Below, one piece after another: positions 5,395 to 42,814 of a stretch of 62,065 nucleotides of DNA. Both the position numbers and the translations under genes were made by a program. Below the pieces are notes generated by a model. The model was not told the origin of the DNA. It ran no database searches and worked only from the letters and a program-made list of their open reading frames with translations. How positions within the stretch are numbered: position 1 is the first letter of the stretch; every line of letters starts with the position of its first letter. Location of the stretch: assembly GCA_964500775.1 (NCBI GenBank), contig CAZCQG010000005.1, positions 12,853-74,917 on the forward strand. Direction: 5' to 3'. This DNA is from an uncultured Campylobacterales bacterium. GTDB lineage: Bacteria; Campylobacterota; Campylobacteria; Campylobacterales; CAZCQG01.

Positions 5395-5808
5395 CTAGTA
5401 AATAATATCGAGCTTGTCGCTCGGCGCGCGGAATCGAAACTCTAGCGTCGCGGTCTTATTTTTCCTCTCATACTCTTTAAAGCTTAACAACATAAAGGGC
5501 GCTTCTTCATACGCACCGTTTGCGCGCAAGAGTTTGAGTTTGTAGCTCTCCCTTTGATGATCTTTATAAAGGACAAACTGTTTTACAAAACCATCGTATT
5601 TCAGGACAACGACCAGTCCGCTATTTTTGTATAATGTCCAATGAAATACGATATTTTTGCTTTCGGTATTGAGATTGAGCTTGATGGTAAACTCTTGATC
5701 TTTTTTGAGGGTGATCTCACCGCTCTTTTGCCAATATCCGGCAACTTCGGCACTGCTTTGCAAACAAAGCGTACCGAGCAAAAACAGAAAAAAGAAAAAC
5801 CTATTCAT
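5395..5808 (-). CDS. Exported hypothetical protein
   Basis: Signal-peptide-like N-terminus; overlaps the upstream gene stop; in operon with ispB/hemA. Confidence 0.7.
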   Translation of the reverse strand: MNRFFFFLFLLGTLCLQSSAEVAGYWQKSGEITLKKDQEFTIKLNLNTESKNIVFHWTLYKNSGLVVVLKYDGFVKQFVLYKDHQRESYKLKLLRANGAYEEAPFMLLSFKEYERKNKTATLEFRFRAPSDKLDIIY

Positions 5809-6061
5809 TTTGGCTAAGAATCGAAGCCATCATATCCATATAATAGTTTTTCACGCCCGAATCAAGTGTGTTTTCTTCGTCAAATATGAGCGCCAACACC
5901 TCTTTATCGAGATCTTGAAACTTATCTTGCGCGAGCATCTCAAGCGCTACGCATCTTTTTACGAGCTTATCTATCTCGGAGATACAAAGTTCTCTATTGG
6001 CGTTATAAAGGATGTCAAAAAATTTGTCCTTGGGCGTACCCTCGAAAATATCGTCAAACAT
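5801..6061 (-). CDS. DUF2018 family protein
   Basis: MFDDIFEGTPKDKFFDILYNAN start and ILSQNE end recalled as typical of this Campylobacterota family; usual position upstream of ispB-hemA. Confidence 0.75.
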   Translation of the reverse strand: MFDDIFEGTPKDKFFDILYNANRELCISEIDKLVKRCVALEMLAQDKFQDLDKEVLALIFDEENTLDSGVKNYYMDMMASILSQNE

Positions 6062-6090
6062 ATCTCACCTTCTGTAAAAAAAGTAACTTA

Positions 6091-6411
6091 CCGATGTTAC
6101 GCACACATAGGGGCAAAGCTCCTATGTGTGGCAGGGACACCCTCGGCTATGCTTTCGCATATAGCCATCGGTTTCAAAGCTAAAAAAGCCAAGCAGTTGG
6201 CTTTTTGTATACGCTTTTCACCCTTGCAACCCCCTAAAGCTACCCGCTGAAGCGGGAGATTCAAGCAGTTTCGCACTTAACCCCTGAAGTCAAGTCAAGC
6301 GATACCCTTTATCCCGTGCGGTCAAAGCTTTAGCTTTGGGTACTGCTCGTGGATAACCGGGACTAAAGCTTGACTTGACTTCAGGGGTTAACAACAAGTG
6401 CGTAACATCAG
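6091..6411. mobile_element. MITE-like non-coding element with terminal inverted repeats and multiple internal hairpins
   Basis: GATGTTACGCAC (6093-6104) is the exact reverse complement of 6398-6409. Flanking direct repeat AGTAACTTA at 6082-6090 and 6410-6418. Perfect 24 bp internal inverted repeat 6277-6300 / 6368-6391. 10 bp stems at 6102-6130 and 6183-6206. Confidence 0.7.
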
Positions 6412-6434
6412 TAACTTAGTGTAGCAAAATGTAG

Positions 6435-7733
6435 CTATTTTAATCGAAATCGCACCGACTTTTCGTGTGCTTCAAGCCCCTCTGCGCTTGCAAATGCAGC
6501 GCAATCCTCACCGAGTTCGTTAATAGCTTCATCGGAGAAATAGATGACCGAGCTTTTTTTCATAAAATGCTCTGTCCCGAGCGGCGAATAAAATCGTGCC
6601 GTACCGCCGGTGGGCAAGGTGTGATTGGGTCCTGCCATATAGTCGCCGATAGGTTCGGGGGTGTTTTTACCGATGAATATGGCTCCTGCATTTTTGATCC
6701 TCGGAAGGACATCGAGGTGATTTTCTACCATCAACTCCAAGTGTTCGGGGGCGATTTTATTCATAAGGGCGATGGATTCTTGCAAATCCTCGGTAATGAG
6801 AATCGCACCGCGGTTGTAGATCGATTTTTCGGCGATCTCTTTGCGGTTTAGCTCTACGACGAGGGTATCGATCCAGTCGGAAACTTTTTGTGCCAATTCC
6901 ACGGAATCGGTCGCAAGAATCGAGCTTGCCATCTCGTCGTGTTCTGCTTGCGAGAGGAGATCGATGGCGATGAGGCGCGGGTCGGCTTTGGAATCGGCAA
7001 TGATTCCTATCTCGCTAGGTCCCGCGATCATATCGATATTCACTTCGCCATAGACGAGTTTTTTCGCCGTCGCGACGTAGATATTACCCGGACCCGTGAT
7101 GACATCGACCTTCGGGATAGATGCCGTCCCGTATGCCAGCGCCCCCACTGCGCTTGCGCCGCCGACTTTAAATACGGTATCTATCTTGCAGATGTGGCAC
7201 GCGGCTAGGAGAAGCTCATTCACCTCCCCTTCCATCGCAGGCGTGGTGACTACTATCTCCTCCACTCCCGCTACGAGCGCCGGAATAGCGTTCATCAGAA
7301 GCGAGCTAGGATATGCCGCTTTGCCGCCGGGGATATAGAGACCCGCTTTTTCCACAGGGGTTACTTTTTGTCCGAGAATCGAGCCGTTCTCTTCGTAGTG
7401 CATAAAACTGCGCGGTTTTTGGAGTTCGTGGAATCTCCATATCCGCTCATACGCCGTGTGGATCGCTTTTTTGAGCTTTTCGTCGGTGTTTTTATAGGCT
7501 TTGAGTATGTCGGCTTTATCGACTTTGAGCGCATTTGCGTCGGAAGGATTCCATCTATCAAACCTCGCGATTTGCGCTATGAGCGCGCTATCGCCTTGAG
7601 TTTTGACTTCGTCGAGTATCGTTTTGACGCGCCCCTCGACTTCGCTCATATCCACGCCGCCGCGACCCAAAAGCTCTTCAAATTCGGCTTTGAAGTTTTC
7701 GTTGTTCGTGTAGATAAATTTTATTTTTTCCAT
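6435..7733 (-). CDS. hisD: Histidinol dehydrogenase
   Basis: GLYIPGGKAAYPSS, IDMIAGPSE, LLSQAEHD, APEHLEL, GDYMAGPNHTLPTGG. Confidence 0.97.
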   Translation of the reverse strand: MEKIKFIYTNNENFKAEFEELLGRGGVDMSEVEGRVKTILDEVKTQGDSALIAQIARFDRWNPSDANALKVDKADILKAYKNTDEKLKKAIHTAYERIWRFHELQKPRSFMHYEENGSILGQKVTPVEKAGLYIPGGKAAYPSSLLMNAIPALVAGVEEIVVTTPAMEGEVNELLLAACHICKIDTVFKVGGASAVGALAYGTASIPKVDVITGPGNIYVATAKKLVYGEVNIDMIAGPSEIGIIADSKADPRLIAIDLLSQAEHDEMASSILATDSVELAQKVSDWIDTLVVELNRKEIAEKSIYNRGAILITEDLQESIALMNKIAPEHLELMVENHLDVLPRIKNAGAIFIGKNTPEPIGDYMAGPNHTLPTGGTARFYSPLGTEHFMKKSSVIYFSDEAINELGEDCAAFASAEGLEAHEKSVRFRLK

Positions 7734-41743: not shown

Positions 41744-42814
41744 ATGAACTCACCGTTTCCTTATGATAGACTACCTACCAAAGAGGAGTTTTTCGGGCGA
41801 ACAGAGGAGCTAACGAAGCTCTCGCGATTTACCGACCACTCCAACAATCTCCTCGTCCACTCCAAAAGGCGTATGGGCAAAAGCGCACTTATCCGCACAT
41901 TTTTCGCCCAAATATCTAGCCCCGCCCTTTGTATCTATGCCGATATTTTCGACATCGCTTCCAAAGAGGATTTTGCGCGTACGCTCCTCAAAGCCCTCTC
42001 CAATGCGCAAAAAGGGGATTTGAAATCGAATATCAAAAAACTCGCATCGCTTTTTAAACGCGTGCGCCTTGAACCCTCTATCGACGCAAATACACTTGAA
42101 TATTCTATCAAGCCCATCGTGACGACGCTCTCGTTTGAGCAGATGATGGAGGATTTTTTCGGCACCCTTAGCGAACTATCAAAAAGTCAAAAAATCATCC
42201 TAGCCATCGATGAATTTCAGCAAATAGATACCCTAACCGACATCAAACTCGATGCGTTTTTACGCCCCCATATCCAAAACCGCGTCAATATCTCTTATAT
42301 TTTTCTAGGCTCCAAACGCCATCTCCTTACCTCGCTTTTTGAATACAAATCCCCGCTATATGAGCTTGCCACCCATTTTGAGTTGGGCGCATTGAAAATA
42401 GATGATATTTACGCCTACGCGAAAAAGCACATCGACATCACTTATGAACAGTGCGAGTACATCTATACTCGAAGCGATGGGGAGACACGGATGATACAAA
42501 ACATCTTGCACCTACTCTACCTCGACAAAACGACCCGTATCGACGATGCGATAGAGGAGACCATCGCCTCTAAAGATGCGAGCTATCGGATGCTCTTTGA
42601 CACATTAGCCAACAACCAAAAAATCGCCCTTAAGATCGTCGGCAAAAATAAAAGTGGATTCTTTGCCCAAGAGGTGCTAAACGACTACAACATCAAAAAA
42701 CAGACGCTCCAATCTGCCCTTGACACCCTTTTTAAAAAAGAGCTTATCGACAAAGACGGCGAGGGGTATTTTATCCCCGATAGAACGCTAGAGCTATGGG
42801 TAGCGAGGCTTTAG
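41744..42814 (+). CDS. Archaeal-type AAA/STAND-like ATPase with C-terminal winged helix
   Basis: FFGRTEEL, Walker A variant SKRRMGKS, Walker B ILAIDEFQ, IFLGS; HTH-like tail ALDTLFKKELI....YFI.D. Confidence 0.8.
   Translation: MNSPFPYDRLPTKEEFFGRTEELTKLSRFTDHSNNLLVHSKRRMGKSALIRTFFAQISSPALCIYADIFDIASKEDFARTLLKALSNAQKGDLKSNIKKLASLFKRVRLEPSIDANTLEYSIKPIVTTLSFEQMMEDFFGTLSELSKSQKIILAIDEFQQIDTLTDIKLDAFLRPHIQNRVNISYIFLGSKRHLLTSLFEYKSPLYELATHFELGALKIDDIYAYAKKHIDITYEQCEYIYTRSDGETRMIQNILHLLYLDKTTRIDDAIEETIASKDASYRMLFDTLANNQKIALKIVGKNKSGFFAQEVLNDYNIKKQTLQSALDTLFKKELIDKDGEGYFIPDRTLELWVARL

Follow-up and report, generated by a model that had tools for sequence, protein, structure and literature searches.

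The Element between hisD and the DUF2018 Gene

The window, i.e., the whole stretch of 62,065 nucleotides analyzed here, belongs to the genome of an uncultured Campylobacterales bacterium (85 contigs; referred to below as the source genome) and contains a run of genes that includes hisD, a DUF2018 gene and ispB. The first two, both on the minus strand, are separated by an intergenic gap of 373 bp (6062–6434), and a 321-bp element lies at positions 6091–6411 of this gap (Table 1). Perfect 12-bp inverted repeats (6093–6104 and 6398–6409), which become 14 bp long if one mismatch is allowed (6091–6104 and 6398–6411), mark its ends. A direct repeat, AGTAACTTA, is present at positions 6082–6090 and 6410–6418; the part of it that follows the family rule described below is the 7-bp TAACTTA. 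A preliminary description of this DNA had listed the inverted and direct repeats, the 10-bp stems, the CCCGC hairpin, the 24-bp stem and a competing pairing at the right end, and all of them are indeed present where it had placed them.

Table 1. Features of the element and of its flanks (window coordinates; hp, hairpin; TIR, terminal inverted repeat).
Feature	Position	Strand	Sequence or remark
DUF2018 gene, downstream flank, outside the element	5801–6061	−	Pfam DUF2018, E = 9e-21
Left target-site duplication	6084–6090	.	TAACTTA; identical 7-mer at 6412–6418, both abut the termini
Left TIR	6091–6104	+	CCGATGTTACGCAC; complementary to 6398–6411 with one mismatch; family consensus CTGATGTTACGCAC
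hp1	6102–6130	+	CACACATAGGGGC-AAA-GCTCCTATGTGTG; inverted repeat, conserved GCAAAGC tip, perfect 10-bp outer stem
hp2, 5′ arm	6131–6138	+	GCAGGGAC; base pairs with 6222–6227; family hp2 GGCAGGGAC..GTCCCTNC
Module X, in the hp2 loop	6139–6220	+	~80 nt; hairpins Xa and Xb
Hairpin Xa	6145–6166	+	inside module X
Hairpin Xb	6183–6206	+	A-run/T-run; perfect 10-bp stem AAAAAGCCAA / TTGGCTTTTT, enclosed by AAAGC/GCTTT
hp2, 3′ arm	6221–6227	+	CCCTTGC; pairs with 6131–6136 (read from the sequence); counterpart of the family hp2 3′ arm
Single-stranded conserved core	6231–6242	+	CCCCTAAAGCTA; 17-mer CCCCTAAAGCTACCCGC, six exact copies in the source genome
hp3	6243–6256	+	CCCGC-TGAA-GCGGG, then AGATTCAA; family hp3 93–98% paired
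hp4, 5′ arm	6268–6278	+	GTTTCGCACTT; mimics the left terminus; pairs with 6396–6406
Module B, in the hp4 loop	6277–6391	+	long hairpin, ~115 nt; perfect 24-bp basal stem 6277–6300 / 6368–6391
hp4, 3′ arm, overlapping the right TIR	6396–6411	+	right TIR GTGCGTAACATCAG (6398–6411); family right end GTGCGTAA(GG/CA)TCAG
Right target-site duplication	6412–6418	.	TAACTTA; matches 6084–6090; 7 bp is the family rule
hisD, upstream flank, outside the element	6435–7733	−	Pfam Histidinol_dh, E = 1.3e-170

On either strand, the 373-nt gap folds far better than shuffled sequences (z = −11.7 and −10.9), and the open reading frames that overlap the element have no Pfam match. Known RNA families, which the preliminary description had proposed to look for, were searched for in permissive scans with Rfam 15 of the window copy, six other loci of the source genome and the canonical Sulfuricurvum copy (L064:604–745), and no family was assigned to the element. 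The top scores were at chance level, both for the window copy (MIR2670, 22.7 bits vs. a gathering score of 117) and for the canonical copy (Clostridiales-2, 15 bits vs. 58.6). Downstream of the latter, a sub-threshold match to the Rfam family FtrB (L064:742–843, minus strand, 40.7 bits vs. a gathering score of 66, E = 2e-5) adjoins, and barely overlaps, the right end of the element.

Copies in the Source Genome and in Other Campylobacterales

A BLAST search with the region retrieved partial copies on six other contigs of the source genome. Indels prevented RNAalifold from recovering the hairpins when a plain MAFFT alignment was supplied; the structure was therefore drawn by hand, and copies were aligned with a covariance model built from 14 of them. 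The model finds exactly six copies in the source genome (on C23, C19, C5, C74, C9 and C54), just two or three of which have intact ends; the one on C23 is flanked by a perfect 7-bp duplication, CTTTTCA. With six copies, two or three intact-ended, and no transposase, the family looks old and inactive in this genome, and the window copy is probably an old composite.

Many relatives carry the family as well, and the copy-number check set by the preliminary description, carried out with BLAST and the covariance model, thus returned a multi-copy element. Matches to the model were obtained in 75 out of 401 sampled Campylobacterales genomes, representing 21 of 96 genera. The 17-mer occurs at a minimum of more than 100 loci of species-representative Campylobacterota genomes; among the matches listed, almost all are from Sulfuricurvum, Sulfurimonas, Sulfurovum and other Campylobacterales metagenome-assembled genomes (MAGs). 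The few matches in unrelated phyla were set aside as chance hits in which the surrounding features are missing. While there are six copies in the source genome, some others contain about 70–200: the covariance model recognizes 71 in the 2.0 Mb of the complete genome G003, and ~200 termini are found in the Sulfuricurvum MAG G041, those of tandem arrays included. The tandem loci of Sulfuricurvum consist of 2–4 units spaced ~108 nt apart. A predicted viral contig from IMG/VR (L415) carries, at positions 1826–1919, a 94-bp mini element with the family ends and a perfect TTAATAA duplication.

No description of the family was found in the searchable full-text literature. The family is ordinary in kind, a set of miniature inverted-repeat transposable elements (MITEs) widespread in sulfur-oxidizing Campylobacterales. 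For an order in which small mobile elements have been little studied, it amounts to an additional MITE superfamily, wide in distribution and apparently undescribed. Such repeats can be mistaken for structured RNAs, and they break draft assemblies: contig C54 begins inside a copy, and the ends of many G041 contigs lie in copies as well.

The source genome contains other repeats, all of them outside the window. A second family of ~270 bp, unrelated to the MITE, has four copies (C4:69377–69650, C27:17314–17585, C35:12650–12923 and C55:1–244, the last at a contig start), of which three are 98–99% identical and one is ~78% identical. A periodic repeat with ~70–75% identity is located at the start of a contig (C46:41–1391), and tandem units of ~320 bp, 91–99% identical, are found at C1:73029–75076.

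The number of copies bears on whether the sequence between hisD and the DUF2018 gene might instead be a single-locus structured noncoding RNA gene, or a leader of the his/isp operon, and no repeat at all. A very stable fold on both strands and an intergenic location within a run of co-directional genes speak for such an RNA. However, the element occurs in several copies whose flanks differ, no Rfam family matches it, and its copy number together with the flanking duplications described below already refutes this reading, to which we assign practically no probability. In addition, among 98 orthologues of the DUF2018 gene in the order, only one has hisD beside it, with an extra gene between them; the two genes are thus not regularly neighbors in the order, and a conserved leader does not exist. 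An insertion, and not a regulatory leader, accounts for the 373 bp that interrupt the hisD-DUF2018-ispB run.

Internal Plan and Exchangeable Modules

When the source-genome copies are read side by side, a basic unit of ~130 bp is seen at C23:26791–26922 and C19:7405–7536. The left terminus, CNGATGTTACGC, is followed by hp1 with a tip of the GCAAAGC type, by hp2 (GGCAAGGACAC..GTGTCCTTTGC) and by hp3 (CCCGC..GCGGG); a short linker then leads to hp4, and the right terminus is overlapped by the 3′ arm of this last hairpin. The plan of the family is thus, in order, TIR, hp1, hp2, CCCCTAAAGCTA, hp3, hp4 and TIR. Family members are usually 120–145 bp long, and the window copy is the largest seen. Two additional modules are fitted into its hairpin loops: module X, which takes the place of the distal stem of hp2, and module B, within the loop of hp4. 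The preliminary description had suggested either a composite of two units or alternative folds, as AAGTGCG at the right end can pair with an internal CGCACTT. This was right in substance, for the two strings belong to the conserved hp4, which overlaps the right terminus and has the module with the 24-bp stem in its loop.

Module X is present at the same insert position in complete, duplication-flanked Sulfuricurvum copies (L062, L092, L101 and L113; the duplication of L101 is TTTATAT). Since the subfamily that contains it is complete and duplication-flanked there, module X is not a one-off insertion at the window locus. Unrelated repeats in other genera also contain the motif of hairpin Xb, with covariation in the outer stem. 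A different repeat of more than 200 nt, at L010 and L014 (genome G019) and L011 (genome G017), has only this motif in common with the element; there, a hairpin is followed by AAGC-TAAAAAAGCNAAGCAGTTNGCTTTTT-CTTTAC-GCTT. Because the outer stem covaries between genera, the motif is a small cassette that travels among unrelated repeat families. A module-X-like hairpin, GGGGC-TAAAAACGCCAAGCAGTTGGCGTTTT-CTTTAC-GCCCC, is also located in genome G003 beside a tRNA-Asp/Val/Glu/Lys array (L013, G003:C1, ~42100–42290), where it directly borders on an incomplete second copy of a tRNA 3′ end that comprises the T-arm and the acceptor (...GGTTCGAGTCCCGTCCACCGCGCCA). The tRNA fragment may be the attachment-site scar of an integrated element. 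That module X itself is a tmRNA or tRNA-like was considered and rejected: ARAGORN and Rfam returned nothing but ordinary tRNAs, located nearby in one other genome.

Relatives of module B with ~80–92% identity are found in the source genome at C54:82–202, C13:9314–9440 and C19:35769–35901. At the last two loci, the module stands alone between terminus-like sequences. No other Campylobacterota have its conserved 18-mer, and module B is therefore lineage-specific. A second composite, 92% identical to that of the window, starts contig C54, and since its right flank is different, the composite is present at at least two loci.

Termini, Target-Site Duplications and Assignment to MITEs

Termini with the consensus CTGATGTTACGCAC are common to copies in many genomes. 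Perfect direct repeats of 7 bp or more flank 24 of the 42 complete copies; the most frequent form has 7 bp and directly abuts CTGATG.../...TCAG. When the source genome, the loci of its relatives and G003 were pooled, 49 independent perfect 7-bp duplications were obtained, all of them different. The number of duplications that have the preferred base at each position (T39 T43 A32 N T29 A35 A40, n = 49) defines a palindromic target, TTANTAA, with 89% A+T. In some duplications the first base is C or A, or the last base is T, from which it follows that 7 bp is the correct boundary. Such palindromic, AT-rich duplications of 7 bp fit staggered-cut transposition.

The termini are not tied to one interior. 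A GC-rich, nearly palindromic 267-bp element of G003 (L150–L155) shares the termini and the 7-bp duplications of the family, whereas its interior is unrelated; the identity of its ends extends over 20 bp, ACTGATGTTACGCAGTATAT, without a mismatch, and it is present in ~10 near-identical copies in both orientations. The combination of identical ends and duplication length with an unrelated interior leads us to infer that one transposition machinery serves several cargoes.

Dozens of independent copies have in common the ends, the internal order and a flanking duplication of 7 bp, and these features are therefore beyond chance. Of the features that characterize a MITE, those found here are small size (321 bp, where MITEs have less than about 500 bp), no coding capacity, conserved TIRs, copy-specific duplications of fixed length and dispersed copies. 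We conclude that positions 6091–6411 of the window very probably represent a non-autonomous MITE of the cut-and-paste type inserted in the spacer between hisD and the DUF2018 gene, with duplication of the 7-bp target TAACTTA. The preliminary description had arrived at a non-autonomous element of this type from the one copy, and its proposal is borne out by the multiple copies, conserved TIRs, copy-specific 7-bp duplications, lack of coding sequence and lack of an Rfam match.

Searches for an Empty Site and for a Transposase

An unoccupied counterpart of the locus, anticipated in the preliminary description, was not found through the flanking proteins, synteny or a scan of two collections. The exact records of the two flanking proteins included none identical, and the DUF2018 protein had no close relative in the species collection. 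The junction predicted for the empty site joins ...AAAAAAAGTAACTTA directly to GTGTAGCAAAATG; the corresponding 28-mer, scanned for exact matches, was absent from the metagenome and genome collections. The mobility of the window copy is what we infer from the sequences of its family.

The other search that had been suggested, for a transposase gene with the same termini, was likewise negative in the source genome, the carrier loci examined, the complete genome G003 and viral contigs; an autonomous partner of this kind is usual for MITEs but not obligatory. In the source genome, neither repeats of the size of insertion sequences nor genes with a DDE_Tnp_1 domain were found; the latter are also lacking in three complete copy-rich genomes (G003, G047 and G106). 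DDE_Tnp_1 enzymes (IS4/IS5) were thus rejected as the mobilizer: they are missing from the source genome and the three complete carriers, and in two carriers that have them the ends are unmatched. Pairs of termini 0.8–1.6 kb apart (the longest ~2.1 kb) in carrier genomes were rejected as autonomous elements, for the genes between them are ordinary ones (e.g., those for thioredoxin reductase, SoxY-like proteins and a chemoreceptor), with no transposase gene among them. The IS481-like, IS110, IS3 and IS256 elements of G003 have ends unrelated to those of the family, and their duplications are 6 bp (IS481-like), 3 bp (IS3) and 8 bp (IS256), with none for the IS110-type. In the same genome, a search with degenerate termini and a generic search for inverted ends 0.6–4 kb apart with a perfect 7-bp duplication yielded chance matches only. 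No autonomous element with family ends was found in viral contigs; the 94-bp mini copy was the only one there.

The hairpins raise the question of whether an HUH/Y1 enzyme might move the element in the form of folded single-stranded DNA; the element would then be a palindrome-associated derivative of IS200/IS605 or a REP/REPIN-like sequence with a RAYT. The interior is rich in hairpins, and a single-copy RAYT-like gene is present in six copy-rich genomes. In G003, this gene (C1:1780790–1781563, minus strand) encodes a protein of 257 aa and lies between flagellin and methyltransferase genes; G047, G041, G043, G044 and G381 also have one each. The product contains a Y1_Tnp domain and a C-terminal HTH, its best NCBIfam match being REP_Tyr_transpos (69.8 bits vs. 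a cut-off of 80), and relatives are found in 175 of the 401 Campylobacterales genomes. Order-wide, the gene is weakly enriched among carriers of the element (44 of 75 element-positive vs. 131 of 326 element-negative genomes), an enrichment that is, however, confounded by phylogeny. Moreover, neither the source genome nor several of the copy-rich ones (G106, G108 and G119) have the gene, and in G003 the element does not flank it. Y1 transposition, as known for IS608 and ISDra2, inserts 3′ of a fixed short target and makes no duplication, so copy-specific 7-bp duplications and true TIRs are not its products. The TCAA that follows hp3 in the window, in which the preliminary description had seen a loose likeness to IS200/IS605 right ends, is not conserved either: the linker varies (AGATTAAC, AGATTACT, AGAGTAAG...). 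The likeness was therefore abandoned, given also the true duplications and inverted termini. Transposition by an HUH/Y1 enzyme is very improbable, and the RAYT-like gene was rejected as the mobilizer because its association is weak and its mechanism does not fit; it is either unrelated to the element or, at most, a weak lead.

Conservation of the Hairpins

In 81 model-aligned copies from many genomes, 89% of the cells are paired, compared to 72% in shuffles and ~40% when the partners were slid. Changes on both sides were found in 44 of the 45 pairs, and in hp1 there are 247 double-change vs. 6 single-change cells, though these counts do not stand for independent events, since the copies descend from few masters. 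Across the family, the 12 pairs of hp1 are ~92% paired, with many double compensatory changes, and double changes occur at all nine pairs of hp4. The 71 copies of G003, which were found without the 17-mer, have similar pairing (about 89–91% across both sets). In this genome, the stem of hp3 is wholly exchanged for CGAAATC..GATTTCG, while CCCCTAAAGCT is retained, and the 12-mer CCCCTAAAGCTA is conserved in the 71 copies despite the different hp3 sequence. The hairpins are thus kept as near-perfect Watson–Crick palindromes. They are better preserved than passive filler needs to be, and a further function is therefore conceivable. Perfect stems could also be maintained in the absence of selection, by templated repair inside quasi-palindromes.

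The asymmetry between A·C and G·T mismatches was tried as an indicator of the strand that folds, and this was rejected because the genomes disagree. In most of them, a conserved A·C beside the hp1 loop dominates the wobble mismatches; in hp2 of G003, it is G·T, and the hp1 arrangement in the source-genome copies is the opposite of that in most genomes.

One function to consider is that an element that is a MITE by origin acts, through its hairpin cassette (with module X), on the host transcript, i.e., as a mobile terminator or an RNA-stability or processing element that, in the window, would lie between hisD and the genes DUF2018 and ispB. Consistent with this are the strong conservation of structure with compensatory changes, the hairpin of module X, which is bounded by A and T runs and whose outer stem covaries between genera, and the fact that each of the six source-genome copies has co-directional genes on its two sides and that their relative orientation is uniform. 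By eye, the A- and T-run hairpin of module X resembles a bidirectional terminator; however, a consensus scan called neither a terminator nor a promoter in the region 5950–6550, module X included. The wobble mismatches show no consistent strand preference, which also speaks against action as RNA. As to orientation, the 83 classified copies of other genomes have no bias with respect to genes (same/same 27, anti/anti 25, mixed 31), and because of this, the uniform orientation of the six copies in the source genome (p about 0.03) is probably due to chance. We consider action on the host transcript distinctly unlikely.

A broader suggestion, which we regard as rather doubtful, is that the hairpin cassette (hp1–hp3 around CCCCTAAAGCTA, plus the exchangeable loop modules) is no filler but functional as a folded nucleic acid, serving either as the recognition structure of an unrecognized transposition system or as a mobile RNA module by which the ends or the stability of transcripts are set in operons. 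If the former were true, it would explain G003, with more than 70 recent-looking copies and no insertion sequence with matching ends.

Proposed Mode of Transposition

For the MITE reading, we propose the following sequence of events. A transposase supplied in trans would bind the termini as a dimer and cut TTANTAA-like sites with a stagger of 7 bp, and repair of the resulting gaps would give rise to the duplication. One enzyme would serve several types of cargo. The 5′ arm of hp4, which imitates the left terminus, could act as an internal pseudo-end; if so, the stand-alone copies of the source genome that consist of a terminus, the long hairpin and a terminus would be explained. The composite of the window would have moved as one unit after gaining its modules.

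Of potential interest to mobile-element specialists are the clear palindromic 7-bp target TTANTAA, the exchangeable hairpin modules, with new ones fitted into hairpin loops, and the presence of unrelated cargoes under one pair of ends, yet with no matching transposase even in a complete genome.

Comparison with Known Systems

Elements derived from IS200/IS605 and REPINs are, like the family described here, hairpin-rich, gene-less and present in many copies, and many carriers of the family have a RAYT-like gene. Unlike them, the family has real TIRs and copy-specific 7-bp duplications, lacks a fixed flanking tetranucleotide and is not strictly associated with the RAYT-like gene.

Pneumococcal BOX elements and enterobacterial BIMEs and ERIC sequences are mosaics of a few hairpin modules that vary in combination and number and form tandem arrays. 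The family resembles them in being a mosaic of hairpin modules and in its tandem arrays (2–4 units in Sulfuricurvum). The spread of REP/BIME sequences is ascribed to RAYT enzymes and involves no duplication, and we know of no BOX, BIME or ERIC elements that combine regular 7-bp duplications with fixed inverted termini; both are present in the family, which sets it apart.

In ISfinder descriptions, the IS4-family elements IS10 and IS50 and the ISPepr1 subgroup have ends that start with CTGA and duplications of 7–9 bp. The termini of the family also begin with CTGA, its target is symmetric and its duplication, of the staggered-cut type, is of similar length. Membership in the IS4 family is unsupported, as no DDE_Tnp_1 gene was found in the source genome or in the three complete carriers, and the DDE_Tnp_1 genes of two other carriers lack matching ends; by analogy, the transposase of the family would nevertheless be expected to work like IS4-family enzymes.

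Correia/NEMIS elements of Neisseria are gene-less, intergenic, multi-copy sequences of ~100–150 bp with ends of ~26 bp and a TA duplication. Compared with these, to which no sequence similarity would be expected, the family differs in its 14-bp ends (CTGATGTTACGCAC), of unrelated sequence, its 7-bp TTANTAA duplication and its Campylobacterales hosts. Both are small, gene-less and intergenic, occur in many copies without a resident cognate transposase, and have TIRs, a target duplication and an interior that folds strongly.
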